Shown here: positions 19,192 to 45,549 of the stretch, piece by piece
How positions within the stretch are numbered: position 1 is the stretch's first letter
How the letters are laid out: the number at the start of each line of letters is the position of its first letter
Source: Methanomassiliicoccaceae archaeon
GTDB taxonomy: Archaea; Thermoplasmatota; Thermoplasmata; Methanomassiliicoccales; Methanomethylophilaceae
Length of the DNA: 64,000 bases
Reading direction: 5' to 3'
NCBI GenBank assembly: GCA_003550345.1
Contig: PUJZ01000027.1
Location: 15,134 to 79,133, forward strand
Translations under genes and position numbers: made by a program
The notes under the pieces: generated by a model
The model's input: only the letters and a program-made list of their open reading frames with translations
Database searches by the model: none
Told to the model about the DNA's origin: nothing

Positions 19192-20283
19192 TCAGGGGAA
19201 GGGGAAGCGGCAGCGGAGCATCTTCGCCATGCGGCGCCGTCCGAGGGAGAGCATGCACCATTCGGTGCGCAGGTCGGAGCCGAAGGCGAAGGTGTCCGCC
19301 AGCAGCTTGGTCCAGGCGGCGCTGCGCAGCCGGGGGAAGAGCACCCGCCGGCAGGCGTCCTCATAAAGGGAGAGGGGCTCCCCGCGATGCAGGTGCCCGG
19401 CGATGGCCTCGGCGGCGAGTCGGCCACCGATCATCGCCAGCGGCACCCCCCCGCCGTTGACCGCCATCACATGGCCGGCGGCATCGCCCACGGTCAGAAC
19501 GCCCTCGCCGTGTATGGGGGACATCGGGCCCTGGGCGGGGACGTGCTTCCCCCCCAGCCCGCCCCGCAGGTTGAACCCTTGGTCCGCAGCGAAACGGCGG
19601 AAGTACTCCGAGGTGCTGCGCTCCGCCAGGCGGGGGTTGTGGCCCACGCCGACGTTGGCGCCGCCGTCCTTGGGTATTATCCACCCGTAGGCCCCCGGCG
19701 CTATCCCCCCGAAGAACATGGTCAGCACCGGCTCGAAATCCCCCTCCGCCTGGGCGGTGACGGCGGGATACGGGCTCTTGGGCAGGGGAAGCCCCATCTC
19801 CCTCGCCACCCGTGAGCCGGGGCCGTCGGCGCCCACGAGCACCTTGGCCTCGATGGGGCCCTCGGAGGTCTGGAAGAGGCCCCCCTCGCGCCTTTGGAAG
19901 GCGCAGGAGGTGATGAGCTCAGCGCCGGCGGAGACCGCCAGCGATGCCAGGTGCTGGTCGAAGCGGTCCCGGTCGGTGCTGTATCCTTGGAAGGGGATGT
20001 CGTAAGCCCGTCCCTTGGGAGTGACCAGGCGTATGGCCTCGATCTCCCGGCGCCGGAGGCCGGAGGGGGTGTCGAACAGCTCCTCCAGGTCCGCGGAGGC
20101 GGGGAACATGTCGCGGATCTCCTCGATGCTGGGCATGAACTCGCCGCAGCGCACGGGGACGCCCACCCGCGACCTCCTCTCTACCATGGTGACATCCAGC
20201 CCCTGCAGCGCCGCGTAGCGGGCCACGGTGCTGCCCGCGGGTCCGGCGCCGACGACGAGCACATCGGTCTTCAATGCCGACAT
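19192..20283 (-). CDS. geranylgeranyl reductase family FAD-dependent oxidoreductase
   Basis: DVLVVGAGPAGSTVARYAA, VRCGEF, LVGADGPGSRVA, GDAAGHV. Trimmed to ATG 20283 (MSALKTD). Confidence 0.85.
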   Translation of the reverse strand: MSALKTDVLVVGAGPAGSTVARYAALQGLDVTMVERRSRVGVPVRCGEFMPSIEEIRDMFPASADLEELFDTPSGLRRREIEAIRLVTPKGRAYDIPFQGYSTDRDRFDQHLASLAVSAGAELITSCAFQRREGGLFQTSEGPIEAKVLVGADGPGSRVAREMGLPLPKSPYPAVTAQAEGDFEPVLTMFFGGIAPGAYGWIIPKDGGANVGVGHNPRLAERSTSEYFRRFAADQGFNLRGGLGGKHVPAQGPMSPIHGEGVLTVGDAAGHVMAVNGGGVPLAMIGGRLAAEAIAGHLHRGEPLSLYEDACRRVLFPRLRSAAWTKLLADTFAFGSDLRTEWCMLSLGRRRMAKMLRCRFPFP

Positions 20284-20291
20284 GGTGCCAC

Positions 20292-21260
20292 CTACAGCTT
20301 CCTCTCCAGAACGTAGTCCGCCAATGCCGTCAGGGAGTCCCGGAACCGGGAGGGCGGCACCCCCTCGAGGTACTCCTTGGCCTCGTGGACGAACTCGCGG
20401 GCGTGCTCGCGGCACAGCTCCAGCACGTCAGTGGAGCGGATGAGGTCCAGGGCCTCGGCCACATCAGCGTCGCTCTTATGCTTGAGCGCGAATATCTCCT
20501 GGACCCTCGGGCCCGCATCATCGTCCCGCATGGCCATTATTATGGGCAGCGTCGGCTTGCCCTCGTAGATGTCGATGCCGGAGACCTTGCCGGTCCTCGA
20601 CTCGTCGCCCTCGATGTCGAGGATGTCGTCGGCTATCTGGAACGCGAGGCCGATGTTGAGGCCGTAGCCCCCCATGGCCTCGATCATCGGCGAGTCGGCT
20701 CCGGCCAGGTAGGCGCCCACCCTCGCCCCGGCGGCGATGGGCTTGGCGGTCTTGCCCTCGATTATCCGCCGGTAGACCTCCATCGAGGTCTCGGAGCGGC
20801 GCTCGTGGTCCGATTGGATGAACTCCCCCTCCGCCATGGCGTTGCATGCGTCGGCGATGGCGTTGACCACCTCCTCGTCCAACGTGCCGCCGAGACGGAA
20901 GCCCTGCACGAAGAGGAAGTCGCCGGCGATTATCGCCTTGGGGACGGTGAAGCGCCGGTGGGCGGTGAGCTGGCCGCGGCGCAGCTCGCTGTCGTCGTTG
21001 ATGTCGTCGTGCAGGAGGGTGGCGCTGTGGATGAGCTCGAAGGCGGTTGCCGTCCTGATGATCTTGCTGGGGTCCTCGCCTCCGGAGGCGAGGAAGGCCA
21101 ATATGCAAACCCCCGGGCGCAGCCTTTTGCCGCCGGAGTCCAATATGTGGCGGCATATCTCCGTCAGCTCCGGCTGGCTGGAGGCGATGCTCTCCTCCAT
21201 CAGCTCGTCCACCCGGCGGAGCTGGTCCTTGATGGCCGCGTCCCAGGTCTGACCCATCAT
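20292..21260 (-). CDS. idsA: polyprenyl (geranylgeranyl) diphosphate synthase
   Basis: FARM LLHDDINDDSELRRG and SARM FQIADDILD. I prefer ATG 21260 (MMGQTW) over the TTG at 21305 in the ORF track. Confidence 0.88.
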   Translation of the reverse strand: MMGQTWDAAIKDQLRRVDELMEESIASSQPELTEICRHILDSGGKRLRPGVCILAFLASGGEDPSKIIRTATAFELIHSATLLHDDINDDSELRRGQLTAHRRFTVPKAIIAGDFLFVQGFRLGGTLDEEVVNAIADACNAMAEGEFIQSDHERRSETSMEVYRRIIEGKTAKPIAAGARVGAYLAGADSPMIEAMGGYGLNIGLAFQIADDILDIEGDESRTGKVSGIDIYEGKPTLPIIMAMRDDDAGPRVQEIFALKHKSDADVAEALDLIRSTDVLELCREHAREFVHEAKEYLEGVPPSRFRDSLTALADYVLERKL

Positions 21261-21302
21261 CGGCTGATAATGATACGGCCTACTTAAGGCTTGCTGGATG
21301 TA

Positions 21303-21316
21303 CAATAAAATGGAAA
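21303..21316 (-). terminator. candidate oligo-T terminator after nuoN
   Basis: The minus strand reads TTTCCATTTTATTG about 30 nt after the nuoN stop. Confidence 0.25.
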
Positions 21317-21345: not shown

Positions 21346-22803
21346 TCAGCCCATCAGGGCGGTGGCGGCATTCTCGCACAGGGTGATCACCGGCTCGGGG
21401 AACACGCCTATGGCGATGACGGCGACGAGGCATATCAGTATGGCCGCCATGAAGGGCATGGGGACCTTGATGGGCTCGATGCTCTCGCCCTCGTCGACGT
21501 ACATGAACTTCACCACCCTCGCGTAGTAGTACAGCGAGATGGCGCTGTTTATGACCGCCACGAAGACCAGCCATATCCACTGCGTCTCCACCAGCTCGCC
21601 GGGGAAGCCCACCGCGCTGGAGAACAGCACGAACTTGCTGACGAAACCGGCCAGCGGCGGAACCCCCGCCAGGGCGAAGAGGAATATCAGCATGGCGAAC
21701 GCCAGCACCGGAGCCCTCTTGGCCAGGCCCTTGTAGTCGCTGAGCTTCTCCCCCATGGAGAGGTAGCAGAGCGCGGCCACGATGATGAAGGCGCCCCCCT
21801 TCATGAACACATGGGTGATCATGTGGAACAGGCCTCCGGTCAGCGCGTAGGGCGTCATTATGGCCAGGACCATCATCAGATAGCCCCCCTGGGCGATGCT
21901 GGAGTAGGCCAGCAGCCTCTTCATGTTCGTCTGCGACAGGGCCACGACGTTGCCCACGGTCATGGTGATGGCCGCGAGTACGGCGAAGGCGTACTGCACG
22001 TCGCTGACCAGGGTTGCCTGGGCGGCGATGAAGCCGACGAGGAATATCTTGAAGAACGCCACGAAGCCCATCTTCTTGGAGCCCACCGCCAGGAAGGTGG
22101 TGACCGGAGCGGTCGCGCCTTCGTAGACGTCGGGGGCCCACATGTGGAAGGGGACGGTGGTTATCTTGAATCCCAGACCGGCTATGATCATCGCCACCGA
22201 TATCAGCAGGCCGCCGGTGGGGGCGGCGCCGATGGCGAGGGCTATGGCCTCCAGGTTGGTGGTCTGCGTCACGCCGTAGAGCAGCGAGAAGCCGTAGAGG
22301 GTCAATGCGGTGGACAGGCCGCCGATGACCAGGTACTTCACCGCCGCCTCAGCGGCGCGGGGGTCGTTCTTGCGGAACGCCACCAGCGCGTACGAGGATA
22401 TGCTCGTCAGCTCGACACCGACGAATATCCCGATGAGGTCCTCGGCGCAGGCCACGAACATCATACCGGCGGTGGCCGCCAGCAACAGCGCGTAGTACTC
22501 GCCGTGGTGGCGGTCGCGCTCCACGCTCTTCAGGGAGGCGAGCAGCACCAGCAGCGCCACCATTAGGAACATCCCGGTGAGCAGCAGCGAGAACTCGTCC
22601 ACCGCGTAGACGTCGAGGAAGCTCCCTGTGACGCCCTCCATCATCATCCAGCCCAGGTAAAGGCCGGCCGCAAGCACCGAGACGATCGAGAACATCCCGA
22701 CCAGCTTGTCGTTCCTGGTGAGGAAGTACAGTCCCGGTACCAGCAGCGCCGCCGCCAGCACTATCAGCTGCGGGGCTATCAGGGTGAAGTCAGGCATCGT
22801 CAC
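21346..22803 (-). CDS. nuoN: NADH-quinone oxidoreductase / Fpo-like complex subunit N
   Basis: 485-aa polytopic antiporter-like protein, last gene of the nuo cluster. Overlaps the nuoM stop. Confidence 0.88.
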   Translation of the reverse strand: MTMPDFTLIAPQLIVLAAALLVPGLYFLTRNDKLVGMFSIVSVLAAGLYLGWMMMEGVTGSFLDVYAVDEFSLLLTGMFLMVALLVLLASLKSVERDRHHGEYYALLLAATAGMMFVACAEDLIGIFVGVELTSISSYALVAFRKNDPRAAEAAVKYLVIGGLSTALTLYGFSLLYGVTQTTNLEAIALAIGAAPTGGLLISVAMIIAGLGFKITTVPFHMWAPDVYEGATAPVTTFLAVGSKKMGFVAFFKIFLVGFIAAQATLVSDVQYAFAVLAAITMTVGNVVALSQTNMKRLLAYSSIAQGGYLMMVLAIMTPYALTGGLFHMITHVFMKGGAFIIVAALCYLSMGEKLSDYKGLAKRAPVLAFAMLIFLFALAGVPPLAGFVSKFVLFSSAVGFPGELVETQWIWLVFVAVINSAISLYYYARVVKFMYVDEGESIEPIKVPMPFMAAILICLVAVIAIGVFPEPVITLCENAATALMG

Positions 22804-24317
22804 AGGAACACCTCCAGAACGGCGGCCAGATCACTGGCGTAGGGGAATATGAAGTCCCATGCCAGGGCAGGGAATATCCCGAACAGCGCGATCAGCCCGC
22901 ATAGCGCGGCGAGGGAGACCCCCTCGTAGACGCTGACGTCGTGCACCTTGCTGGTGTCGATCTTGTCCGTCAGGGGGCCGAATATGCTCCTCTGCATCGC
23001 CCACAGGTAGTAACCGGCGGTGAGAAGCAGGGATGCCAGCGCTATGATTATGGTCCAGACGACGCCCTCGCTGAGGCCCCAGTTGTAGAAGGCCACCAGG
23101 ATGTTGAACTCCGCCACGAAGCCCACCAGGCTGGGGAGCCCGAGGGACGCCATGAAGCCTATCATCATGAAGGCTGCGTAGTTGGGCATCTTCTCGGCCA
23201 GGCCGCCCAGGAGCGGTATCTGCCGGGTGCCGACGTTGTGGCCCGCAATGCCGCAGACCATGAAGAGCACCGCGGTGATCAGACCGTGGGCGAACATCTG
23301 GAAGGCGCCGGCGGCGATCCCGATGTCGCTCAGGGTGGCGATGCCGAGGAGGACCATGCCCATGTGGCTGATGGACGAGAACGCCACCAGCTTCTTCAGG
23401 TCGCGCTGCGCGATGCACGCCAGCGCGCCGTAGACGATGGCCACCAAGGCTATCACGATCATCGGCACCTGCCAGGCCACGGCCCCTTCGGGGAGCACCT
23501 CCAGGCATATCCTGATTATGCCGTACGTACCCATCTTCAGCATCACACCGGCCAGCAGCACGCTGCCGGCGGTGGGCGCCTCGACGTGGGCGTCCGGCAA
23601 CCAGGTGTGGAAGGGCACGATGGGCATCTTCACGGCGAAGCCGAAGAAGAGCATGCCGAACACCAGGACCTGGAAGCCCTGGGTGAACAGCGCCGCCGCC
23701 GCGCTGACGTCCGCGAACGCGAACGAGAGCTGGCCGGTGCCGGCCACCGCGGCCGACTCGATGACCAGCGCGAATATGCCGATCATCATGACCAGGCTCG
23801 ACACGTGCGTGTAGATGAAGAACTTGATCGCCGCGTAGTGCCTCTTCGGACCTCCCCATATGTTGATGAGGAAGTACATGGGGACCAGCGCCACCTCCCA
23901 GAATATGAAGAAGAGGAAGTAGTCCATCGCCATGAAGACGCCCAGCAGGCCGACCTGCATCCCCAGCAGGAGTGCGAAGAAGAAGTTGGGCCTCTCCTTC
24001 TCCTCCCAGGAGAACAGCACGACCAGGAACATCAGCACATTGGTGAGCAGGACCATTATCAGGCTCAGGCCGTCGAGTCCCACTATGTACTGGATGCTCA
24101 GGAACGATGTCTCTATCCACGCGTACTGGTCCACGAACTGGTATCCTGACGACGCGTCGAAGGCGGTCACCAGGTACAGCGTCACCGCCAGCGGCAGGGC
24201 GGTGAACGCCAGTGCCACGTAGCGGGCGTACTTGGCCAGGTCGCCGGCCATCGCCAGCGCCAGCACCGCTCCCACCAGAGGGGTGAAGAGCACCAATGAA
24301 AGAATCATGTCGGTCAT
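22800..24317 (-). CDS. nuoM: Nuo/Fpo-like complex subunit M
   Basis: 505-aa antiporter-like protein with WLPDAHVEAPTAGSVLLAG. Confidence 0.9.
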   Translation of the reverse strand: MTDMILSLVLFTPLVGAVLALAMAGDLAKYARYVALAFTALPLAVTLYLVTAFDASSGYQFVDQYAWIETSFLSIQYIVGLDGLSLIMVLLTNVLMFLVVLFSWEEKERPNFFFALLLGMQVGLLGVFMAMDYFLFFIFWEVALVPMYFLINIWGGPKRHYAAIKFFIYTHVSSLVMMIGIFALVIESAAVAGTGQLSFAFADVSAAAALFTQGFQVLVFGMLFFGFAVKMPIVPFHTWLPDAHVEAPTAGSVLLAGVMLKMGTYGIIRICLEVLPEGAVAWQVPMIVIALVAIVYGALACIAQRDLKKLVAFSSISHMGMVLLGIATLSDIGIAAGAFQMFAHGLITAVLFMVCGIAGHNVGTRQIPLLGGLAEKMPNYAAFMMIGFMASLGLPSLVGFVAEFNILVAFYNWGLSEGVVWTIIIALASLLLTAGYYLWAMQRSIFGPLTDKIDTSKVHDVSVYEGVSLAALCGLIALFGIFPALAWDFIFPYASDLAAVLEVFL

Positions 24318-24318
24318 C

Positions 24319-26355
24319 TCAGGCCCCTCCTGTGATCCAGCCGATGATGTAGATCAGGGCGATCAGCACCACCACGCCTCCCACCACGAAGGCGGCGTAG
24401 GTCTGCAGGAAGCCGGTCTGTATCCGGCGCAGCATCTGCGAGCCTCCGGTGAGGGAGTTGGCTATGCCGTCGACGCTGCCGTCGACGGCCTTTCGGTCGA
24501 CCTCCTCGACGGCCATGGCCGCCGGGTATGCCATCTTCAGCGCTATGCCGTCATAGAACTGCGGGAAGTAGTACCTCCTCTGCAGCAGCTGGTACAGGGC
24601 CGACTGCCCGTCGCGGTTGAAGCGGCCGGGGTCGAGGTCCCTGACGTAGTACATGCGGTACGCCGCATAGATGCCGAGCAGGGCTATGACGATCGCCAGA
24701 TAGGCGTAGGGGCTGGTGAATATCTTCTCCAGCACATCGAGCATCGCGTAGCCTCCGCCTCCGACGACGAACTCCCCGGCGACGTATTGGAACGTCATCG
24801 TGGTGTTGAAGCCGAAGAGGATGGCGAAGCCCGAGAGGGCGGCGAAGACGGAGAGCGCTATCAGCGGATAGCTCATCACCGGCGGCGACTCGCCGTGGCA
24901 ATGCTTGCTCGCCTCGCCCTCCTCGCCGCAGAAGGTCATGAACCAGAGACGGAACATGTAGAAGGCGGTCATGAACGCGGTGGCCAGCGCCAGCAGGTAC
25001 AGCAGCAGGAATATCATCGCCGCTGGCTCGCTGCTCTCGGCGACGACGAGCACCGACTCAAGGACGAAGTCCTTGGACCAGAACCCGGCGAAGACCGGTA
25101 TGCCGGCGATGGACAGCGTTCCTATCAGCATTGTGATGGAGGTGATGCCCATCCGCTTGCGCAGCCCGCCCATCTGCCGCATGTCCTCGGAGCCGACGGC
25201 GTGTATCACCGATCCAGCGCCGAGGAAGAGCAGGGCCTTGAAGAAGGCGTGGTTCATCATGTGGAAGACTCCAGCGGTGTAGCCGAACGCCTTGGCGCCG
25301 GAGACGTCCACGCCGCCGGCGACGCCGGTGGCGACCACGTAGCCCCCCGCCCCCAGCGCCAGGATCATGAATCCCAGCTGGGAAAGGGTGGAGTAGGCCA
25401 GTACCCTCTTTATGTTCATGTTGTTGAGAGCCATGGTGGCCGCGTAGAACGCGGTCACGCCGCCGATGATGGCCACGAAGAGCATCACGTCGGCGCTCTG
25501 GACGAAGAGCGGGAAGGAGCGGGCGGTGAGGTAGACACCGGCCTTGACCATCGTCGCCGCGTGTATAAGGGCGGAGACGGTGGTGGGCCCCTCCATCGCG
25601 TCCGGCAACCAGTCGTGCAGCGGGAACTGCGCGCTCTTGCCGATGACGCCGCCGAATATCAGCACCGAGCCCAAGGCCACGGCCGAGCTGTCAGCGGCTG
25701 CGAGCGTGGCGGCCGAGAACAGCTCCGCGTAGTTGAGGGTGCCGAACTCGTTGAGCAGGACGAAGAGACCTGCCAACAGGGCGACGTCGCCCATCCTGGT
25801 CACCAGGAAGGCCTTCTTGGCCGCCGAGGCGGCGGCCGCCGATGCCTTCTCCCCCTTGGGGTGCTTGAAGCCCCAGAAGCCGATGAGCAGGTAGGAGCAG
25901 AGACCGACGATCTCCCAGAAGATGAACATCTGCAGGAAGTTGCTGGCCATGACCAGGCCGAGCATCGCCGTCAGGAAGAGGGAGACCTTGGTGTAGTACC
26001 TCCTCTTCTTCTCGCCCTCATCGTGCATATAGCCGATGGAGTAGATGAATATCAGAGTGCTGATGAGGGACGCGAAGACCATCATCAGCACCGCAAGGTT
26101 GTCCAGGTAGAGGCCGAAGTCCAGGGTTATCCCCTGGGAGATCTGCAGCCACAGCACCTGGTCCACGTAGGGGGCGGTTACCCTCCCCGTAAGTACCTCA
26201 TACGCCACCAGGGCGGAGAGCACGAAGGCCAGGCCGGCGGCGCCGACCGCGATGTACCCCCCTCCCTCCGGGGTCCGGTGTCCGAAGAAACCGATGACCA
26301 GGAAGGCCACCAGCGGTATGATGGGTATCAGCCATGCGTATTCAGTGAACATCAT
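24319..26355 (-). CDS. nuoL: Nuo/Fpo-like complex subunit L
   Basis: 678 aa. WLPDAMEGPTTVSALIHAATMV, plus the long C-terminal extension typical of NuoL. Confidence 0.9.
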   Translation of the reverse strand: MMFTEYAWLIPIIPLVAFLVIGFFGHRTPEGGGYIAVGAAGLAFVLSALVAYEVLTGRVTAPYVDQVLWLQISQGITLDFGLYLDNLAVLMMVFASLISTLIFIYSIGYMHDEGEKKRRYYTKVSLFLTAMLGLVMASNFLQMFIFWEIVGLCSYLLIGFWGFKHPKGEKASAAAASAAKKAFLVTRMGDVALLAGLFVLLNEFGTLNYAELFSAATLAAADSSAVALGSVLIFGGVIGKSAQFPLHDWLPDAMEGPTTVSALIHAATMVKAGVYLTARSFPLFVQSADVMLFVAIIGGVTAFYAATMALNNMNIKRVLAYSTLSQLGFMILALGAGGYVVATGVAGGVDVSGAKAFGYTAGVFHMMNHAFFKALLFLGAGSVIHAVGSEDMRQMGGLRKRMGITSITMLIGTLSIAGIPVFAGFWSKDFVLESVLVVAESSEPAAMIFLLLYLLALATAFMTAFYMFRLWFMTFCGEEGEASKHCHGESPPVMSYPLIALSVFAALSGFAILFGFNTTMTFQYVAGEFVVGGGGYAMLDVLEKIFTSPYAYLAIVIALLGIYAAYRMYYVRDLDPGRFNRDGQSALYQLLQRRYYFPQFYDGIALKMAYPAAMAVEEVDRKAVDGSVDGIANSLTGGSQMLRRIQTGFLQTYAAFVVGGVVVLIALIYIIGWITGGA

Positions 26356-26359
26356 GTCT

Positions 26360-26662
26360 TTACCACCTCAGGATGTTGATTTCTTCGAGGTCGGTCGTCC
26401 CGCTGGTCTTGTAGAGGTTCAGCAGTATGGCTATGCCCACCGCGACCTCCGCCGCCGCCACCGATATCGCCATTATGACGAACACCTGCCCGGCGACGTC
26501 GTTGAAGAACGCCGCGAAGGCGATGAAGTTGATGTTGGCGGCGTTGAGCATCATCTCGATGCACATCAGCACGACAAGGCCGTTCTTCTTGGTCAGCACC
26601 CCGTAGGCGCCGACGGCGAAGAGGACCGCTGAGAGCCCCAGGAACATCTCTATGGGTATCAT
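26360..26662 (-). CDS. nuoK: Nuo/Fpo-like complex subunit K
   Basis: 100 aa with three TM helices. IEMMLNAANINF matches the NuoK motif. Confidence 0.88.
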   Translation of the reverse strand: MIPIEMFLGLSAVLFAVGAYGVLTKKNGLVVLMCIEMMLNAANINFIAFAAFFNDVAGQVFVIMAISVAAAEVAVGIAILLNLYKTSGTTDLEEINILRW

Positions 26663-26919
26663 GGCGCATCCTCCTTGGCCAGATAGACGCCGCCCAGGAT
26701 GGCGGCGAACATGAGCACCCCCATCACTATGACCACCGCGCCGTACTCCTCGAAGAGCGCGTGGTTGAGGTCGCCGGGCGACATCTCGCCCTCGGCGGGG
26801 TCGAACGGTATGCCGTGTATGGTCTCGCCAGCGTCCCAGTCGACGGTGGCGGCGGTACCGAGAAGCAGCGCCCCCAGGGCTATCGCCAGGATCAGCGCCG
26901 CGGCCGTCTTCCTACTCAT
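26659..26919 (-). CDS. nuoJ: Nuo/Fpo-like complex subunit J, C-terminal piece (J2)
   Basis: LFEEYGAVVIVMGVLMFAAILGGVYLA matches the NuoJ C-terminal helix. ATG 26919 (alternative GTG 26928) overlaps the J1 stop. Confidence 0.65.
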   Translation of the reverse strand: MSRKTAAALILAIALGALLLGTAATVDWDAGETIHGIPFDPAEGEMSPGDLNHALFEEYGAVVIVMGVLMFAAILGGVYLAKEDAP

Positions 26920-27226
26920 TGAGGTCACCCCCGATTATGTTCCTCCTGGTCAGCATGATGCTGAAGGCGAAGAGGATGGTGATGGCGCCGACGTAGACCA
27001 TGAGCTGAATGACGGCTATGTACTCCGCATTCAGGAAGAAGTAAACGGCGTCCACCCCCACGAAGGTCAGTGCCAGGTAGAACGCGCTGTGCACCACCTC
27101 CTTCGAGATTACCACGTATATCGCCGCGGCAACGGTTATGGCCGCCGCCACCAGGAAGAAGAAGGTGTCCAGGCCGATCCAGCTGAGGTCCATGCCCAGC
27201 AGGTCGCTTGTGTCAATTCCGAACAT
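26912..27226 (-). CDS. nuoJ: Nuo/Fpo-like complex subunit J, N-terminal piece (J1)
   Basis: AAIYVVISKEVVHSAFYLALTFVGVDAVYFFLNAEYIAVIQLMVYVGAITILFAF is the conserved NuoJ core. ATG 27226 overlaps the nuoI stop by 1 nt. Confidence 0.75.
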   Translation of the reverse strand: MFGIDTSDLLGMDLSWIGLDTFFFLVAAAITVAAAIYVVISKEVVHSAFYLALTFVGVDAVYFFLNAEYIAVIQLMVYVGAITILFAFSIMLTRRNIIGGDLNE

Positions 27227-27966
27227 CAGAGCACCTCGTTGATTTCCAGGGCGTCCTTGGGGCAGATGATTATGCACTGCTCGCAGAAGACGCACTTCGA
27301 TTCGTCTATCTTGGGATGCTTGATCGGCTTCCCCTTCTCGTTCTCGCCGACCACCACCATCTCGATCGCGTCCACCGGGCAGGTCTTGGCGCAGCGGTTG
27401 CAGCTTATGCATTTCTCGCCGATGAGCTTGGGCCGGTCCAGCTCATAGAAGGCCGAGGGCTGGTCGAGTATCCCCTTCTCCAGGTTGGAGATGAGGTGCT
27501 CCTCCATCTTGACCTCCATGCCCTTGGTGGTGTTCTCCCACTTCAGCCTATAGGGGTCGTAGATGAGCTCCTCGCGGGTGAAGGCCGCCAGCTCGTAATC
27601 GGGCGTGACCGTCATCGCATCCACCGGGCAGTACTCGGCGCAATAGCCGCACATCATGCACCTGCCCAGGTTCACCTGGGGCCGCTTGACGGCGCCCATC
27701 TTCTCATCCTCAATGTCCACCAGCTCGATGCAGGTGGTGGGGCATATGCGGGCGCATATGCCGCAGCCGATGCACTTCTCGAAAACGAGTCCGGGGCGCC
27801 CGCGGTAGTTGTCGGGGATCCACTCCTTCTCGTACGGGTAGAGTATGGTGACCGGCCGGCGGATCGTCGTCTTCACCAGGTTCTTGAACGTGGTGAAGAA
27901 CGGCTTCAGTATCCATCCGCGCAGGGCGACGTTCTTCGGGTACTTGTCAAGGTATTTCAGCGCCAT
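27226..27966 (-). CDS. nuoI: Nuo/Fpo-like complex subunit I with an additional C-terminal 2x[4Fe-4S] ferredoxin module
   Basis: Four CxxCxxCxxxCP motifs: CIGCGICARICP and CMMCGYCAEYCP (canonical NuoI), plus CISCNRCAKTCP and CVFCEQCIIICP in the extra roughly 100 residues. Trimmed to ATG 27966 (MALKYLDKY). Confidence 0.88.
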   Translation of the reverse strand: MALKYLDKYPKNVALRGWILKPFFTTFKNLVKTTIRRPVTILYPYEKEWIPDNYRGRPGLVFEKCIGCGICARICPTTCIELVDIEDEKMGAVKRPQVNLGRCMMCGYCAEYCPVDAMTVTPDYELAAFTREELIYDPYRLKWENTTKGMEVKMEEHLISNLEKGILDQPSAFYELDRPKLIGEKCISCNRCAKTCPVDAIEMVVVGENEKGKPIKHPKIDESKCVFCEQCIIICPKDALEINEVL

Positions 27967-29120
27967 CAGTAGACACCTCCTATCTTGAGCAGCACCACGA
28001 TGAACAGGTTTATCACCGCCAGCGGCAGCAGGACCTTCCATCCTATGTTGAGGATCTGGTCCGTCCTTATCCGGGCGAAGGTGCCCCGGGCCCAGACCAT
28101 GATGAAGAACAGCAGCACGACCTTGAGCAGGAACACTATCTCCGGGAGCACCAAAGTGTCCATGAACGGTATCGCCCACCCGCCCAGGAACATTATCGCC
28201 CCCAGGGCGCAGGCCACATAGCCGCGGAAGTAGTCGGAGAGCATGATGAGCCCCCACTTCATCCCGCCGTACTCGGTCTGCCATCCCTCCACCAGCTCGG
28301 CCTCGGCCTCAGGCAGGTCGAAGGGTATCCTCTCGGCCTCCGCAGTGGCGGCGACCATGAAGACCACGAAGCCGATTATCTGCGGCACGATGAACCAGGT
28401 GTTGTCCATCTGGAACTGCACTATCTCGTTGATGTTGAGGCTTCCCGCCATCAGGACGACGGAGGCGAAGACCAGCAGCATCGGTATCTCGTAGCTGATC
28501 ATCTGGGCCGCGGCCCTCATGCCGCCGATGAGCGAGTACTTGTTGTTCTGCGCCCAGCCGGCGACCAGGATCATGAACGGCGACACGGCGAATATGCCGA
28601 ATATCAGCAGCAGGCCGGTGCCGTAGTCCGCCAGGAACCAGCGGGGGCTCAGCGGTATCATCCCCGCGATGAGGACGGCGCTGCCGATGACGATGCTCAC
28701 CGCCCACATGTAGCCCTTCTTGTCCGCCTTCTCCGGCATTATGTGCTCCTTGAGGAATGTCTTCAGACCGTCGGCGAGGTTCTGCAGGTAGCCCAGCGGG
28801 CCTATCCTGGTGGCGCGGCGGTCCATTATCCTTCCGAGCGTCTTCCTCTCTATCCATATCATCGTCAGGTTGACGATGAATATCACTGCGAAGAAGACCA
28901 CCACCATGATGAACAGGCCCATCATGTTGGTGACGAAGTCGCCGATCAGGAACGGCGAGAGCCGGTTCCCGGGCGCGATTATGTTTATCAGCCAGGCGAT
29001 GACGCCGCCGATTATCTCCCACAGCCCGTGCCCGATGGCGTAGGGCAGGTTGTAGACCTCGTAGGGGGAGACCTTGTTGGCGGTGGAGTCGCTTATGCTT
29101 ACCCAATCAGAGACGCTCAT
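27966..29120 (-). CDS. nuoH: Nuo/Fpo-like complex subunit H
   Basis: 384 aa polytopic. ERKTLGRIMDRRATRIGPLGYLQNLADGLK and PFDLPEAEAELVEG are NuoH signatures. Confidence 0.9.
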   Translation of the reverse strand: MSVSDWVSISDSTANKVSPYEVYNLPYAIGHGLWEIIGGVIAWLINIIAPGNRLSPFLIGDFVTNMMGLFIMVVVFFAVIFIVNLTMIWIERKTLGRIMDRRATRIGPLGYLQNLADGLKTFLKEHIMPEKADKKGYMWAVSIVIGSAVLIAGMIPLSPRWFLADYGTGLLLIFGIFAVSPFMILVAGWAQNNKYSLIGGMRAAAQMISYEIPMLLVFASVVLMAGSLNINEIVQFQMDNTWFIVPQIIGFVVFMVAATAEAERIPFDLPEAEAELVEGWQTEYGGMKWGLIMLSDYFRGYVACALGAIMFLGGWAIPFMDTLVLPEIVFLLKVVLLFFIMVWARGTFARIRTDQILNIGWKVLLPLAVINLFIVVLLKIGGVY

Positions 29121-29124
29121 GCGA

Positions 29125-30210
29125 TCACCTGTCCGTCTCCCCTAGACACATGTCTATGGTGCCCATCACCGCGGGCACATCGGCCATCCTCGCTCCCAGC
29201 ACCAGCCTCTTGGAGGCGGACACGTTGACGAATATCGGGCTCCTCACCTTGAGGCGGTAGGGGCGGTCGGTGCCGTCCGATATCAGGTACATCAGCCCTT
29301 CGCCGCGGGGGTCCTCGAGGCGGGCGAAATGCTTGCCCGCGGGGACGTTGCGCGGCGCCTTGACCCTGACCGGCCCGTCGGGCATCCCCGCCATGGCCTG
29401 CCTGATTATCTCGCAGCTCTGGAACATCTCCTCGATGCGGACCGCGTAGCGCCCGTAGGCGTCCCCGTCCTGGGAGACCGGCACCTCGAAGTCGAACAGG
29501 TCGTAGACCTCGTAGGGGTCGTCGCGGCGGACGTCGAAGTCCACGCCGCAGCCCCTCATGGTCGGCCCGGTGAGGCCGAGGTTGGCCGCCTCCTTGCGGG
29601 TGACATGGCCGACGCCCTGCATCCTGGAGAGGAATATGGCGGAGTCGTCCATGAGCGCGATGATGTCCCACAGCTTCTTCTCGAAGCGCTCGACGGCGCG
29701 CATGCAGTCCCTCTCGAAGAGGTAGGGCATGTCGTTGCGCACGCCGCCGATGCGGGGGTAGTTGGTGGTGAGCCTCTGTCCGCAGAGCTTGACGAAGAGG
29801 TCGAGGAATATCTCCCTCTCACGGAGGGACCAGAGGAACACCGTCAGGTTGCCCAGGTCGGTGCCCATGGCCGCCAGCCACATCAGGTGGGACTGTATGC
29901 GGCATATCTCATCGGCGACGACCCTCAGGTACTGGGCCCTCTCGGGGACCTCCAGGTCCAGGCCCTCCTCGACCGCCATCACGTATAGATGGGACCAGGT
30001 CATGGACGCGGAGTAGCACAGGCGGTCCGCCATCGGAATGATCTGCGGATAGGTGCGGTGCTCGCACTCCTTCTCCCAGCCCCGGTGGAGGTAGCCTATT
30101 ATCGGCGTTGCGTCGGTTATGACCTCCCCGTCCACTCTGACCTTCAGGGTCCACAGCCCGTGCGAGAACGGGTGCTGCGGGCCCATGGTAACCCACATTT
30201 TCGAGGTCAT
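29125..30210 (-). CDS. nuoD: Nuo/Fpo-like complex subunit D
   Basis: MGPQHPFSHG, IGYLHRGWEK, C-terminal MADVPAVMGTIDMCLGETDR. ATG 30210 overlaps the nuoC stop by 1 nt. Confidence 0.9.
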   Translation of the reverse strand: MTSKMWVTMGPQHPFSHGLWTLKVRVDGEVITDATPIIGYLHRGWEKECEHRTYPQIIPMADRLCYSASMTWSHLYVMAVEEGLDLEVPERAQYLRVVADEICRIQSHLMWLAAMGTDLGNLTVFLWSLREREIFLDLFVKLCGQRLTTNYPRIGGVRNDMPYLFERDCMRAVERFEKKLWDIIALMDDSAIFLSRMQGVGHVTRKEAANLGLTGPTMRGCGVDFDVRRDDPYEVYDLFDFEVPVSQDGDAYGRYAVRIEEMFQSCEIIRQAMAGMPDGPVRVKAPRNVPAGKHFARLEDPRGEGLMYLISDGTDRPYRLKVRSPIFVNVSASKRLVLGARMADVPAVMGTIDMCLGETDR

Positions 30211-30686
30211 CAATCAGCCCTCCTTAGCTTGTACGATTTGCGGAAGGGGAAGAACTGGTAGTCGCAGGGCGTGAGCAGCCTCTCCAGATGGGGATGGTTG
30301 TTGAACACTATCCCGAAGAGCTCGTAGGTCTCCCTCTCATGCCAGTTGGCGCCCTCCCATATGGGCGTCACCGAGTCGACGCGGAGGTCATCCAGGGGGA
30401 TGTCCGTCTCGATCTCGATCATCACGCCGTTGAAGTAGTTGGAGAGGTGGTAGACCACCTGCATGTGCGTCTCCCAGTCCACCCCGCCCACCGAGGAGGC
30501 CTGCTCGAAGTTCAACACGTCGTGGATGTACTCGCACAGCTCGTAGATCCTCTCCCTCTTGGCGCTGAGGTAGACGCGGCGGGCCTTGCTGCCGCGCAAT
30601 TTCACGTCGTCGCCGAACTTGGCGCTCAGCAGCTCTATGACCTGCTCCACCGTGGGAGCCTCGTAAAAATCATCGTTGCCGGCCAT
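30210..30686 (-). CDS. nuoC: Nuo/Fpo-like complex subunit C
   Basis: SVTPIWEGANWHERETYELFGIVFNNHPHLERLL is the NuoC signature. Confidence 0.9.
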   Translation of the reverse strand: MAGNDDFYEAPTVEQVIELLSAKFGDDVKLRGSKARRVYLSAKRERIYELCEYIHDVLNFEQASSVGGVDWETHMQVVYHLSNYFNGVMIEIETDIPLDDLRVDSVTPIWEGANWHERETYELFGIVFNNHPHLERLLTPCDYQFFPFRKSYKLRRAD

Positions 30687-30690
30687 GCTA

Positions 30691-31254
30691 TCATCCCTCC
30701 AGGAACACGCCCCGCGCGAAGTACTTCTCTATCTTCTTCTGCAGGAGAAGGAAACCGTCTATCATCGCGTCAGGCTTGACCGGGCACCCCGGTATGTAGA
30801 TGTCCACTGGAACAATCTGGTCGGTGCCCTGGATCACGTTGTATGAATCGTACCAGGGACCGCCGGAGATGGCGCACTCCCCCATGGCCACCACCCACTT
30901 GGGCGAGGGCATCTGCTCGTAGAGGCGCCTGATGTCCGGGCGGACCTTCTTGGATATCCAGCCGTTTATTATCAGCACATCGGTCTGACGGGGCGAGGAT
31001 CGGTAGATCATGCCCAGCCTCTCCGCGTCGTACTTGGTGTTGGACGCGGCCGCCATCTCCAGGGCGCAGCATGCGAGCCCGAAGTGCAGGGGGTGGATGG
31101 AGTTCTTCATCGCCCATGCCCATATCGGGCCTGTCAGCCTGTCCACCTGCCTCTTCATGCCGCTGCTCAGCAGCCCGTCGATCATGGCCGTCGACCAGGA
31201 CATGTATTCAGAGGCGCTCATAGCGATCGCGTGCGGGTACAGGCTCATATCCAT
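30691..31254 (-). CDS. nuoB: Nuo/Fpo-like complex subunit B
   Basis: FGLACCALEM, MGECAISGG and IPGCP are the N2-cluster ligand motifs. Confidence 0.9.
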   Translation of the reverse strand: MDMSLYPHAIAMSASEYMSWSTAMIDGLLSSGMKRQVDRLTGPIWAWAMKNSIHPLHFGLACCALEMAAASNTKYDAERLGMIYRSSPRQTDVLIINGWISKKVRPDIRRLYEQMPSPKWVVAMGECAISGGPWYDSYNVIQGTDQIVPVDIYIPGCPVKPDAMIDGFLLLQKKIEKYFARGVFLEG

Positions 31255-31607
31255 ACTGACTCCTCCTTCTTCAAAGCGTAAGTCACTCCCAAAAGAAGAA
31301 TTCCGAGGAAGGCCACCGCCCAGATCTTACCCATGGCGGTGAGGTCGGCGAAGGCAACGGCCCAAAGCATCAAAAAGACGATAACAAGGTCGAAGACCAC
31401 GAAGATAATGCCGAACATATAGTACTGGAATTTGAACTGGACCTGCGCCTCGCCGATTGGCACCGAGCCGCACTCATAGGTCGTGTTCCTCCACTCAGAA
31501 GGCTTCTCGGGACGGAAGAACCTGGAGGCCCACCAGGCCAAGGGGGCGAACCCCAGGGCCAATACAGCGAACAACGCTACTGGTAAGTATTCCTCCACGA
31601 GCATCAT
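31245..31607 (-). CDS. nuoA: Nuo/Fpo-like complex subunit A
   Basis: TYECG motif and three TM segments. Trimmed to ATG 31607 (MMLVEEY). Confidence 0.85.
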   Translation of the reverse strand: MMLVEEYLPVALFAVLALGFAPLAWWASRFFRPEKPSEWRNTTYECGSVPIGEAQVQFKFQYYMFGIIFVVFDLVIVFLMLWAVAFADLTAMGKIWAVAFLGILLLGVTYALKKEESVWI

Positions 31608-31630
31608 TGCGACACGGTAAAGAATATAAT

Positions 31631-31638
31631 TATTTAAA
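31631..31638 (-). promoter_or_regulatory. TATA box (TTTAAATA) for the nuo operon
   Basis: The minus strand reads TTTAAATA, 24-31 nt upstream of the nuoA ATG. That geometry predicts a leaderless or near-leaderless transcript. Confidence 0.5.
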
Positions 31639-31744
31639 GATTCTAGGGATTTTAATTTTATCTGACTGGCATATAGAAACCCCGCTGCAGGGCCTCCCGC
31701 AGTCATTAATAAGCAGCTCTCAGATACGCTGATAGGGATCGCGA

Positions 31745-32554
31745 ATGCAAGGCAAGATCGGATTCATAGGCGCCGGCAACATGGCCGAGGCCCTCATGAG
31801 GGGCCTCTTGGACCAGGAGGTGTGCTGCAAGGAGGACGTCATCGCCGGCGAGGTCTTCGAGCCCCGCCGCGAGTACATCGCCAAGACCCTGGGCGTGTCC
31901 ACGACCGCCAGCAACCAAGAGGTGGTGAGCTCCGCCCAGGTGGTCTTCCTGGCGGTCAAGCCGCAGCACCTGCGCCAGGTGCTGGGCGAGCTGGAGGGGT
32001 CCTTCAGCGAGGACCATCTGGTGGTGTCCATCGTCGCAGGCGTGACCCTCGCTTCGCTGGAGGGCATGGTCCCCGAGGCCCGGGTGGTGAGGGTCATGCC
32101 CAACCAGCCCTGCATGGTGATGGCCAGCGCCTCCGCGTATTCGCTGGGCAGCAAGGCCACATCTGAGGACGGCGAGACGGTCAGGTCCTTCCTCGAATCG
32201 GTGGGCGTCGCCTACCAGGTGGAGGAGCGCCTCATGGACGCGGTCACCGGCCTCAGCGGCAGCGGCCCCGCCTACGCTTACCTTATGATGGAGGCCCTCT
32301 CCGACGGAGGGGTGCTCATGGGCCTGCCGCGGGACGTGTCCACCATGCTGGCGGCGCAGACCCTGCTGGGGGCGGCCAAGACCGTCCTGGAGACGGGGGT
32401 GCACCCCGGCCAGATGAAGGACGTGGTGAGCTCCCCCGGGGGCACCACCATCGCCGCCCTGCAGGTCCTGGAGGATGCGGGCGTCAGGGGCGCCCTCATG
32501 GGCGCGGTGCAGGCCTCGGCGGAGAGGTCCAAGGAGCTGGGGCGGGACCCCTAG
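31745..32554 (+). CDS. proC: pyrroline-5-carboxylate reductase
   Basis: [40 protein letters not shown]. Confidence 0.92.
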
Positions 32555-34299
32555 GCCCGACGGGCGAGCGCCGAGCGCAATGACGACTTGACCAGGCCGG
32601 AGGCCACGCGGGGGGCGTTGCGCCATATCGACCCGCTGTCCCAGTCCAGGTCCCTCTTGTCGCATATGGTGGAGGCCATTATGCGCTGGCCCTCGTCCTT
32701 GACCTCCCAGAGCAGGGACTCCCTCCGCTCGGGGTCGGGGATGGCCATGATCTCATCGATGCGGTGCATGAGGCCGCGGGCGGTCTCGGTGCGCAGGTCG
32801 CGGGACTCCTTCTCCTCCGCCGTTATCTGCCCGCAGTCGAGCATCGCCCGGTTCAGGCCGAGGGCCACATCGTACGATGTGTCGGCGATCTCGTCCCGGC
32901 TCATCCATTCCGTCTCGTAGGAGAGCACGTACTTCCACGAGGGGCTGTCCAGGAGCCGGCGGTGCTCCTCCAGGGTGCGGGCGAAGAACCGGTAGCCATG
33001 CTTCTCCGGCTCCTCGAAGCCCTTGCTGCCAGGGTCCACGAACGGCGCGAACGGCGCCGAGTAGACGAAGAGGCGCCGGTCGTTGTCGAGACGGGTCCAC
33101 AGGCTGCGCGAGTAGTCGGCGGTGGCGAGGGCGGACTCGCGGGTCTGCTCCGGCAGGCCCACCATGAAGAAGAGGTCGAAGCGCTGGCATCCGTTCTCCA
33201 GCGCCTTCCTGATGGTGCCCTCCATCACCGAGTCGTCGAAATCCCCCAGAGGGCTGAGCTTGCTGCGCACCGACTGGTCGTGGGACTCGGGGGAGAACTC
33301 CAGGGTGTACTCGCCCAGGGCCGAGGCCGCCATGCGGTAGAACTCGCGGTCGGCGGGGCGGAACATCTCCATGGCGATGTGGTTGTCCACGCCGCGCTCC
33401 TTGATGCCGTTGAAGAGCCTCTCCGCGTAGTCCTTCCCCCCCTGCCGGACGTCCCCGATGATGAAGACCGGCGAGTCCAGGTAGTCCCCGATGCGCTCTA
33501 TGTCCTCGGCCAGCCTCTCCGGGCTGCGGAAGGCGGGGCGGCGGCGGCAGAGGAAGCCCCTGCCGGCGTAGGCGGAGCCGCCGCACTCGGTGCAGCTGTG
33601 GCAGCAGCCGCGCACGGTGAAGACCGAGGTGAGCGGGAGCTTGTCCCAGCCCAGCCAAGGGAGCGCCCCCTTGATGTCGCGGTGCCTCATGGTGTTCTTG
33701 ATCATGGTGCCGTAGTCGAACTCCACATAGTCCAATGACTCGGGCACGAAGCTCAGCGGGTTGACCCTCACCTTGCCGTCGGAGTCCTTCCAGCACAGGT
33801 TCTGCACCTTGGAGAAGTCCCCGTCCCCGGTGACGGCGTCCATGAACTCCACCTGCGGCAGCTCGGTGGAGTCCCCCCGCATGACGAAGTCCACCTCGTC
33901 CCGCTGCATCAGCTCCTGATGGTAGTAGGTGGCGGAGAAGCCCCCCAGCTGCACCTTGGCGTGGGGATGTATCGACTTCACCAGCTTGGCCACCTCCAGG
34001 GCGCCGTGGGCGTGCGGCAGCCAATGGAGGTCGATGGCGAAGACGTCCGCGTCAAGGGAGCGGATCCTCCGCTCCACGTCGAAGCGCTCGTCGGCGAGCA
34101 TCTGCACCGCCAGGTTGACGATGCGGGTGCGGTAGCCGGCCTTCTCCAGATGGCTGGAGATGGTCATGAAGCCGATGGGGTACATCTCGAAGACCGGCGA
34201 CGACGGCACAACGTCGCTCACCGGGCCGTAGAATATCGGCTTCTTGCGGAAGTCGTAAACGCTCGGTGCGTGCAGGAATACAATATCAGACCTGGGCAC
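32551..34299 (-). CDS. B12-binding domain / radical SAM protein (candidate archaeal lipid-modifying enzyme)
   Basis: N-terminal Rossmann-like B12 domain ([13 protein letters not shown]...DVFAIDLHW), radical SAM motif CCHSCTEC (CxxxCxxC), 582 aa. GTG start. Confidence 0.75.
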
Positions 34300-37659: not shown

Positions 37660-38556
37660 TCAAGAAATACCTTTCGATGCGGCGGCGAGCTCGGCCGCCT
37701 TCACCGTGTTCTGCATCAGCATGGCGATGGTCATCGGGCCCACCCCCCCGGGCGAGGGCGATATCGCCGACGCCCTCTGCTTTACGTTCTCGAAGTCCAC
37801 ATCGCCCACCAGGCGGTAGCCCTTCTCGCTGCCGGGGTCCTCGACGCGGTTGGTGCCCACGTCCACCACCGCCGCCCCCTCCTTCACCATGTCGGCGGTC
37901 ACGAAGAGGGGCTGGCCGATGGCGGCGATGAGCACGTCGGCCCGCCTCGTCACCTGGGCCAGCGCCGGGGTGCGGGAATGGGCCACGGTGACGGTGGCGT
38001 CCGCGCCCGCGCCCTTCTGCATGAGCATGGCGGCGATGGGCTTGCCCACGATGTTGCTGCGGCCGAGCACCACCACCTCCTTGCCCTCGATGGCCACCCC
38101 GCTGCGCAGCAGGAGCTGCTGTATGCCCGCCGGGGTGGCCGGGAGGAAGAGGGGGTCGCCGATGAGCATGCGGCCGACGTTCAGCGGATGGAAGGCGTCG
38201 ACGTCCTTGAGCGGGTCTATGCGCTCGATGACCTTCCTCTCGTCCACATGCGGCGGAAGCGGCAGCTGGCAGAGCACCCCGTGCACGCCAGGGTCGCTGT
38301 TCAGGCCGTCGAGCACGGCCAGGAGCTCCTCCTCGGAGGCGTCGGCGGGCAGGGCGCGGGTCAAGGAGTCTATCCCCAGGCGCTCGCAGGCCTTGCCCTT
38401 CATGCGCACATAGACATGGGATGCGGGGTCGTCCCCCATGATGACCACCGCCAGGCAGGGGTTCGTACCCTTTCCGCGCAGCTCGGCGAGCCTCTGCTCC
38501 AGCCCCGCGGTGACCTGGGCGGCCACCTCCTTGCCGTTCATCAGACGGTAGCTCAT
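37660..38556 (-). CDS. folD: bifunctional methylenetetrahydrofolate dehydrogenase / methenyltetrahydrofolate cyclohydrolase
   Basis: PCLAVVIMGDDPASHVYVRMK, LCQLPLP, GRSNIVGKP, PSPGGVGPMTIAML. Confidence 0.93.
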   Translation of the reverse strand: MSYRLMNGKEVAAQVTAGLEQRLAELRGKGTNPCLAVVIMGDDPASHVYVRMKGKACERLGIDSLTRALPADASEEELLAVLDGLNSDPGVHGVLCQLPLPPHVDERKVIERIDPLKDVDAFHPLNVGRMLIGDPLFLPATPAGIQQLLLRSGVAIEGKEVVVLGRSNIVGKPIAAMLMQKGAGADATVTVAHSRTPALAQVTRRADVLIAAIGQPLFVTADMVKEGAAVVDVGTNRVEDPGSEKGYRLVGDVDFENVKQRASAISPSPGGVGPMTIAMLMQNTVKAAELAAASKGIS

Positions 38557-38582
38557 CTTACCCTGCTCGACTATGCTAGGTC

Positions 38583-38620
38583 GCTATTTATGCTTTTCAG
38601 CCGGAGAAATCTAATTTAAA
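38583..38620. promoter_or_regulatory. divergent TATA elements for folD and fhs
   Basis: The minus strand reads GCATAAATAGC (38582-38592), about 30 nt upstream of the folD ATG. The plus strand has TAATTTAAA (38612-38620), about 24 nt upstream of the fhs ATG. Both imply very short leaders. Confidence 0.4.
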
Positions 38621-38640
38621 GGTAAGGGAATCACCCCCCG

Positions 38641-41119: not shown

Positions 41120-41238
41120 GCCCTGCGGAGCGCGTTGCGGCTGCATCAATGTGACAAGGCCGCCGGCGGACATAAAGGTTATATCCGCCCTGCCCTTGAA
41201 TGAAGATGCGCCCCCCGGGGGCGGGCGGAGGTCAGGCA

Positions 41239-43609: not shown

Positions 43610-43627
43610 TGGTTGATATCGCATCAT

Positions 43628-43670
43628 TATAAAAAAGATGACCCGCAGGGGGAATCCATTACATTTATGA
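43628..43670. promoter_or_regulatory. divergent TATA elements for the methyltransferase and purH
   Basis: The minus strand reads CTTTTTTATA (43628-43637). The plus strand has CATTTATGA (43662-43670), about 24 nt upstream of the purH ATG at 43690. Confidence 0.4.
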
Positions 43671-43689
43671 TTGACCTAGCGATATAGGC

Positions 43690-45288: not shown

Positions 45289-45474
45289 TCACTCCTCATC
45301 GTCGAAGATTATCATCGGCCTGCCCTCGGCCTTCCTCTTCATATGGCCCCCGGGCCCGCCCCTCTCCTTGCGCGCCGCGTCGATGCATTCCTCCGACTCG
45401 CAGGTGAAGGCGGCGAAGACGAAGTTCTTCGCGGTCCTGCCGCAGAACTGGCATACGTAGTCCTCGATGTTCAT
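45289..45474 (-). CDS. small hypothetical protein (61 aa), Cys-containing with acidic C-terminus
   Basis: [18 protein letters not shown]...TCESEEC. Strong GC3 bias. Its stop abuts the purH stop. Confidence 0.45.
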
Positions 45475-45549
45475 GCCCGGGAATCGCCCCCTACGGATAT
45501 GCTTTTTGCGGGGGAAAATTCCTTAACCGGAATCCCGATAAAGCAGGGG

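Follow-up and report, generated by a model that had tools for sequence, protein, structure and literature searches.

Complex-I-like enzymes that lack the NADH module, which include most archaeal 11-subunit complexes and the 'headless' Fpo, pose an old question, namely where their electrons come from. The question is raised by a 64,000-nucleotide stretch of contig PUJZ01000027.1 from a Methanomassiliicoccaceae archaeon (the window), since it encodes an 11-subunit complex of this kind with an unusually long NuoI/FpoI-like subunit. An original prediction, made from the DNA alone, had claimed four CxxCxxCxxxCP motifs in this 246-residue NuoI and had proposed that the added part might serve as a built-in entry or docking module for ferredoxin or an Hdr-type partner. 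From the analysis presented here, the extra C-terminal domain is read as a built-in extension of the Fe-S wire and as an electron-entry adaptor, likely for ferredoxin; this reading is tentative, with a probability of about 0.45.

Domain layout of the four-motif NuoI

Translation of the gene yielded all four predicted motifs, in which 16 of the 17 cysteines of the protein are found. The first two motifs are located within the match to the NCBIfam model TIGR01971 (NuoI; residues 31-140, 163.1 bits with a cutoff of 113.05) and are the canonical ligands of clusters N6a and N6b, as had been supposed. Membership in the NuoI family is further marked by the invariance of these two motifs in homologues and by the position of the gene between nuoH and nuoJ. 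The canonical form of NuoI, however, is a two-cluster protein of ~120-230 residues with no further Fe-S domain. The NuoI of the window has four motifs and a separate dicluster domain recognized by Pfam Fer4_7 at residues 185-239, and therefore represents a variant of that form. The added module had originally been placed at residues 145-246; these do correspond to positions 27229-27534, but the ferredoxin fold itself starts only at residue ~178, residues 141-177 being a conserved linker (Table 1). Between motifs 3 and 4 there is a segment of 28 residues (27 between motifs 1 and 2 of the core), which contains KGKPIKHPK and forms two β-strands (residues 201-208 and 214-220) in the structure model. 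The [4Fe-4S] clusters of the extra domain are predicted from its intact and invariant ligand motifs. In 2x[4Fe-4S] folds each cluster is bound by three cysteines of one motif and the fourth of the other, and equating one motif with one cluster is thus only approximate for a four-motif NuoI.

The ATG of nuoI overlaps the stop codon of nuoH, its own stop codon overlaps the ATG of nuoJ, and GGAGGTG is found just 5' of nuoI; because of these features, the three genes are probably translationally coupled. A longer open reading frame (ORF) of 352 residues starting at 28284 was rejected, since its additional part overlaps nuoH in another frame and the homologues all start at the methionine of MxxKYLDKY.

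No nuoE, nuoF, nuoG, fpoF or fpoO gene was found in the operon or among ~40 other ORFs scanned in the window, in agreement with the original prediction. The gene set corresponds to the Fpo-like set of Methanomassiliicoccales, ABCDHIJ(N)J(C)KLMN without F and O, and agrees with the published gene list (PMC4153887). The operon layout, the split J and the lack of NuoEFG are shared with the Fpo operon of Methanosarcina and with the 'headless' Fpo of Methanothrix and Methanomassiliicoccales. The subunit differs from FpoI in that it scores 119.6 bits, below the cutoff of 180, with the FpoI model NF040612 (135 positions, covering residues 28-144 only), and in that its operon contains neither fpoF nor fpoO, at least one of which is expected of an FpoI operon. 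Nor is the protein a polyferredoxin of the FwdF/MvhB/EhaP type, as it consists of two units only and the first of these is a true NuoI, marked by the N-terminal arm, the YPYEK region and the location of its gene inside the nuo operon.

The single-chain AlphaFold2 model was of moderate quality (mean predicted local distance difference test score 76, predicted template modelling score 0.63), with local scores of ~80-88 in both ferredoxin domains. Foldseek comparison demonstrated that the first half of the model resembles subunit I of complex I (E. coli, mitochondrial and chloroplast enzymes), and that the whole model resembles FwdF over ~210 columns, without rigid-body agreement; PDB entries 6L7O, 6KHI and 6KHJ were among the fold matches. 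In a sequence search of the PDB, the extra domain matched best the repeat units of FwdF and MvhB, followed by NuoI, NdhI and PsaC, the whole-chain E-values of FwdF and MvhB (1e-25 to 1e-22) being summed over several repeats. The NuoI chains of the E. coli, T. thermophilus, mitochondrial, chloroplast and cyanobacterial enzymes align to residues ~20-150 only and have no counterpart of residues 150-246; the HycF chain 7z0s_F was also a core-only match. The original prediction depended on the extension not being ubiquitous in NuoI of NADH-dependent complexes, and it held, since these PDB chains align to the core alone. No four-cluster NuoI was found among solved structures by the PDB sequence and fold searches, in which the extension matched polyferredoxins and PsaC. 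In comparison with NuoI/Nqo9/TYKY (NDUFS8), the window subunit is thus alike in its family-model match, its two canonical motifs, its gene position and its fold, and differs in ~105 extra C-terminal residues, two more motifs and a complex without NuoEFG.

In three independent alignments, none of the 16 motif cysteines varies. The alignments contain, respectively, 35 sequences of Methanomassiliicoccales, 19 distant sequences (28-44% identical) and 12 sequences from a clade of uncultured Thermoplasmata for which acid mine drainage was one of the sources. The invariant positions include all eight cysteines of the extra domain as well as several linker residues. The ratio of nonsynonymous to synonymous substitution rates (dN/dS) relative to close orthologues, obtained from only five comparisons with unsaturated dS, was 0.03-0.12 for the extra domain, 0.06-0.17 for the NuoI core and 0.06-0.40 for the linker. 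Judging by the first two ranges, purifying selection on the extra domain is no weaker than that on the core. In a two-sequence comparison the extra domain was 40% identical to the core ferredoxin domain of the same protein (E-value 2e-16); this identity, together with the near-equal motif spacing, fits an origin by tandem duplication of the core ferredoxin fold.

Distribution beyond the methanogenic order

A collection of 5.8 billion proteins was searched with the window NuoI and the best 120 matches were considered. With the exception of a 186-residue fragment (P0051), these are 242-266 residues long, 54-87% identical and cover at least 94% of the query, hence the extension is present in them. 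They bear the names Methanomethylophilaceae, Methanomassiliicoccaceae, Candidatus Methanoplasma and, for some metagenome-assembled genomes (MAGs), 'Thermoplasmatales'. Among GTDB contigs with one genome per species, 416 related loci were found, and in the best 80 of these, to which the analysis was confined, the extended NuoI is full length, apart from one cut by a contig end. These 80 loci belong to Methanomassiliicoccales by title or, where bins bear bacterial titles, by operon content. The closest is from a soda-lake sediment MAG (92%), and tblastn with the window subunits revealed the same operon in essentially every locus of sufficient length.

Twelve of the 80 records (L009, L021, L033, L037, L039, L045, L050, L054, L061, L064, L066 and L068), all of a '..._cleanbin_...' series, are titled as bacteria, among them Bacteroides salyersiae, Dialister hominis, Prevotella hominis and Lachnospiraceae, and contain typical Methanomassiliicoccales nuo operons; these bins are probably mislabelled or contaminated.

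The possibility that the extension is an artefact, i.e. that nuoI was joined to a separate ferredoxin gene by an error of assembly or of gene calling, was suggested by nothing other than the unusual length and is so improbable that it may be regarded as refuted. The reading frame is single and uninterrupted, the conserved linker is under purifying selection, and length and architecture are the same in the 80 species loci, as well as in more than 300 different sequences drawn from independent assemblies.

For a wider view, the best 150 NuoI relatives among 1.84 billion representatives clustered at 50% identity were scored for motifs. As many as 97 of these 150 closest representatives are of the two-motif form, which likewise tells against the extension being ubiquitous. 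About 20 further representatives (244-359 residues, 37-48% identity) combine four motifs with the N-terminal signature of NuoI, and a third dicluster domain, giving five or six motifs in total, is found in P0124 (317 residues), P0125 (514 residues) and P0152 (291 residues). Given that P0125 has a middle domain much like the extra domain of the window protein (…IEMIVVGKNEKGRPIKHPK…), these sequences suggest a stepwise elongation of the C-terminal wire.

A profile of the distant four-motif sequences retrieved proteins of 'Thermoplasmata archaeon' and 'Candidatus Thermoplasmatota archaeon' as well as proteins from acid mine drainage. Complete nuoABCDHIJKLMN operons without EFG are present in six loci (L082-L087) of uncultured Thermoplasmata outside Methanomassiliicoccales. 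Because extended NuoI also occurs in these 11-subunit operons, the extension is ancient within the wider Thermoplasmata group and reaches beyond the methanogenic order. Cultured Thermoplasmatales (Thermoplasma, Picrophilus, Ferroplasma) did not turn up in the match lists, which is not evidence of absence.

Among the contexts examined, i.e. the 80 Methanomassiliicoccales loci and L082-L087, every operon that encodes the extended NuoI is head-less and leaves no space for EFG. The exception to complete operons is provided by four loci of a sister Thermoplasmata clade (L081, 9367-10813; L088, 7376-8813; L089, 7376-8852; L090, 4210-5659), in which only a NuoB-like gene and a gene for an extended four-motif NuoI (248-283 residues) are present, overlapping in three of the four, with no other nuo genes nearby. 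Downstream of the pair there are FeS_assembly_P, an HdrD-like Fer4+CCG protein (~390 residues) and a HesB-like protein, followed in L088 and L089 by Suf genes. Either the operon is split in these genomes, or NuoB and NuoI form a separate module of their own.

Proposed electron entry and the alternatives

In complex I, NuoI is located between the N-module and NuoB. The N-module attaches to the NuoI side close to N6a, where the electrons of the head are taken over, and in head-less enzymes this face is left exposed. Because the complex of the window has no NuoEFG or FpoF head, it is proposed that the extra domain acts as a permanently attached ferredoxin-like adaptor, by which the Fe-S wire would reach further out from N6a. 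Low-potential electrons would come from reduced ferredoxin in solution, or straight from an enzyme that reduces ferredoxin, and would then pass through N6a, N6b and N2 to the coupling site of the membrane arm. We infer a place for the extra clusters on the main electron path, an inward flow and ferredoxin as the donor.

The entry role is supported by the resemblance of the extra domain to the repeats of polyferredoxins (FwdF, MvhB), which serve as electron wires between enzymes, and by the fact that the extension is missing from the NuoI of complexes with a known head. The invariance of the eight extra cysteines, the low dN/dS and the head-less operon contexts also speak for it. FwdF and MvhB differ in being soluble wires, whereas the window protein is bound to a membrane complex and has two tandem units, the first of them a true NuoI. 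A further parallel is found in cyanobacterial and chloroplast NDH-1 (NdhI with NdhS/V/O), an 11-subunit core without N-module to which ferredoxin delivers electrons at the NdhI side, binding beside NdhI in the cyanobacterial enzyme. There, however, ferredoxin is bound by accessory subunits free of clusters, whereas the window NuoI has two extra clusters, as predicted, built in. For the FpoI of Methanothrix, a lysine-rich, cluster-free C-terminal tail has been suggested as the ferredoxin contact, a related idea with a structure different from that of the cluster-bearing extension. Ferredoxin is the proposed donor of head-less Fpo forms, and the 'headless' Fpo complex of Methanomassiliicoccales has been proposed to oxidize reduced ferredoxin, with electrons reaching HdrD (PMC7374477; PMC4153887); papers cited by the former report a ferredoxin-oxidizing, HdrD-linked activity for M. 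luminyensis.

Several points weigh against the entry role. The extension is not required for ferredoxin-dependent input in general, since other head-less 11-subunit complexes do without it, as reflected by the two-motif majority of the closest representatives; the head-less complexes of Halobacteria and Thermoproteota are not known to carry the extension. Within the window, the operon has no linked ferredoxin gene. The extra domain is approximately neutral (mean net charge +0.7) and the segment between its motifs only weakly basic (+0.8 to +1.1), and there is no clear electrostatic signature for the docking of acidic ferredoxins. With the charge near neutral to weakly basic, such a signature was set aside as evidence either way. 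Finally, the extra clusters could lie off the main path.

This last possibility is an explanation in its own right, according to which the clusters would be off the pathway, like N7 or N1a of bacterial complex I, and the domain would mainly stabilize the exposed face of the head-less peripheral arm, help the complex to assemble, or serve as an antioxidant sink or redox buffer. Off-pathway Fe-S clusters retained for structural reasons are well known from complex I (N7 in NuoG), the face that binds NuoG is uncovered in 11-subunit enzymes, and the charge analysis detected no partner-specific surface signal. The eight ligands of the extra domain are, however, invariant across sequences only 28-44% identical, with dN/dS as low as or below that of the core, and the variants with a third dicluster domain (P0124, P0125, P0152) resemble an elongated wire rather than a structural plug. 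An off-pathway role is regarded as unlikely.

A second alternative concerns the partner. The extra domain might be where HdrD or an HdrD-like CCG protein docks and electrons leave (or branch off). The complex would then act as a ferredoxin:heterodisulfide oxidoreductase, its added clusters delivering electrons to the heterodisulfide-reducing partner instead of taking them up. The Fpo-like complex of Methanomassiliicoccales has indeed been modelled as interacting directly with HdrD (PMC7374477), and in the four independent loci L081, L088, L089 and L090 an HdrD-like gene (Fer4_8/Fer4_17 plus CCG) is found 2-5 kb downstream of the pair of NuoB and extended NuoI. In these loci, however, the HdrD-like neighbour stands among Fe-S assembly genes and the linkage may be incidental, while the complete operons of L082-L087, also with the extension, have no HdrD-like gene called within up to 10 kb of flank. 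Near the window operon there is likewise no HdrD, only HdrC/HdrB-like genes ~14 kb off. Moreover, by the established mechanism of complex I, energy coupling needs electrons to exit at the N2/Q-site end and not at the NuoI end. A generic electron-input role fits better than a docking site tailored to HdrD of methanogens, because the extension is present beyond Methanomassiliicoccales. Of the partners originally suggested, electron entry from ferredoxin thus remains plausible, whereas an Hdr-specific role has become less likely given the distribution, and the HdrD exit site is considered improbable.

Similarly improbable is that the extra domain forms a socket not for free ferredoxin but for a dedicated soluble dehydrogenase module encoded elsewhere, for which an Mvh/Hdr-type complex, a 2-oxoacid:ferredoxin oxidoreductase or a FrhB/FpoF-like protein would be candidates. 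The idea rests on analogy with HycB, which leads from FdhF to HycF in the formate hydrogenlyase of E. coli, and with the Eha/Ehb polyferredoxins, in all of which a NuoI homologue is extended outward by [4Fe-4S] clusters toward the donor or partner enzyme. The extra clusters of these systems are located on separate polypeptides and the enzymes are hydrogenases, unlike the window complex, whose clusters are fused to NuoI and whose NuoD matches the models of the NuoD/complex-I 49-kDa family. Polyferredoxins of the EhaP/EhaQ type are distant matches of the extended-NuoI profile, HycF is a core-only match in the PDB, and a 2-oxoacid:ferredoxin oxidoreductase adjoins the NuoB-NuoI pair in L088. That neighbour occurs in this one locus only, however, and neither the window operon nor its counterparts in the 80 related loci have a module of this type linked to them.

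A combined role may also be imagined, in which the extra domain is a bifunctional 'head' of the 11-subunit complexes of Thermoplasmatota, taking electrons from ferredoxin and at the same time offering a physical and electronic socket for a disulfide reductase of the CCG type (HdrD or HdrD-like). This is a speculative proposal, held to be quite improbable. If it were true, gut methanogens would have, in their Fpo-like complex, a ferredoxin:heterodisulfide oxidoreductase complete in itself, and the stand-alone pairs of NuoB and extended NuoI beside HdrD-like genes would represent the same module in a soluble or ancestral form.

Genomic surroundings and meaning of the extended NuoI

The coordinates of the operon, of the parts of NuoI and of neighbouring genes are summarized in Table 1. 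NuoN was assigned from its ORF translation and the conserved gene order of related loci. The polyprenyl synthetase and the geranylgeranyl-reductase-like protein encoded after nuoN form a pair that recurs at this place in nearly all Methanomassiliicoccales loci (L001-L080, ~16.7-18.8 kb); in three loci of other Thermoplasmata (L082-L084) a reductase and a polyprenyl synthase also follow the operon, in swapped order. These neighbours may link the complex to isoprenoid synthesis, either of lipids or of a membrane electron carrier.

Table 1. Positions in the window of the nuo operon, the parts of its nuoI gene and neighbouring genes.
Feature	Residues	Position	Strand	Remarks
11-subunit operon nuoA-B-C-D-H-I-J(N)-J(C)-K-L-M-N		21346..31706	(-)	colinear, split J
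nuoI/fpoI-like coding sequence	246 and stop	27226..27966	(-)	coding 27229..27966, stop codon 27226-27228; TIGR01971 match
N-terminal basic arm	1-54	27805..27966	(-)	mean net charge ~+6 across homologues; low-confidence helix in the AlphaFold2 model
Canonical NuoI 2x[4Fe-4S] core	55-140	27547..27804	(-)	motifs 1 and 2, N6a/N6b ligands
CxxCxxCxxxCP motif 1	65-76	27739-27774	(-)	
CxxCxxCxxxCP motif 2	103-114	27625-27660	(-)	
Acidic conserved linker	141-177	27436..27546	(-)	invariant M150, L158, S160, G165, D177; faster evolving than both domains
Extra C-terminal 2x[4Fe-4S] ferredoxin domain (predicted clusters)	178-246	27229..27435	(-)	motifs 3 and 4, Fer4_7
CxxCxxCxxxCP motif 3	186-197	27376-27411	(-)	
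CxxCxxCxxxCP motif 4	225-236	27259-27294	(-)	
Polyprenyl synthetase		20292-21305	(-)	directly downstream of nuoN
Geranylgeranyl-reductase-like flavoprotein		19192-20415	(-)	after polyprenyl synthetase
Hybrid-cluster protein	534	4029-5633		Prismane family
FolD		37660-38556		
Formate-tetrahydrofolate ligase		38641-40311		
MTHFR		41343-42836		
Pterin-binding protein		42821-43627		
PurH		43690-45288		
HdrC-like		45343-46011		
HdrB-like		46004-46786		

On the other side of the operon, proC (31745-32554) adjoins nuoA divergently, and a B12-binding radical SAM protein of 582 residues (32551-34299) is encoded between the nuo operon region and the UPP synthase and TiaS-like genes. Further along the window a tetrahydrofolate C1 cluster (FolD to PurH) is followed at once by the HdrC-like and HdrB-like genes on the same strand (37660-46786 in all). 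At 3244-5633 the hybrid-cluster protein is followed by a 262-residue protein that contains 13 cysteines and has a 2x[4Fe-4S] domain at its N-terminus. Two glutamate-synthase-like genes are located on opposite strands (11000-12604 and 13422-15833), and the larger of the two proteins (803 residues) has a ferredoxin dicluster domain ahead of its Glu_synthase domain. Three ORFs with good support from guanine-plus-cytosine content at codon positions gave no Pfam match at E<=1e-6 (56126-57658, 510 residues; 49449-50237, 262 residues; 62534-63298, 254 residues).

In the full-text literature searched, no description of a four-cluster NuoI or FpoI was found, although an earlier mention is possible. Borrel et al. 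2014 (PMC4153887) listed fpoI without comment, and Moparthi and Hagerhall 2011 discussed extensions for NuoC only.

The four-cluster NuoI is present in hundreds of public genomes, mostly annotated just as '4Fe-4S binding protein', a label that conceals how a core respiratory subunit differs in structure throughout a whole lineage. With it, the peripheral arm is predicted to contain five [4Fe-4S] clusters instead of three. In human and ruminant guts the Methanomassiliicoccales are major methanogens of the methyl-reducing type, and the complex is their only proposed membrane coupling site; for the electron source of this complex, the extra cluster pair of NuoI offers a concrete and testable candidate for the site of electron entry or of partner docking.

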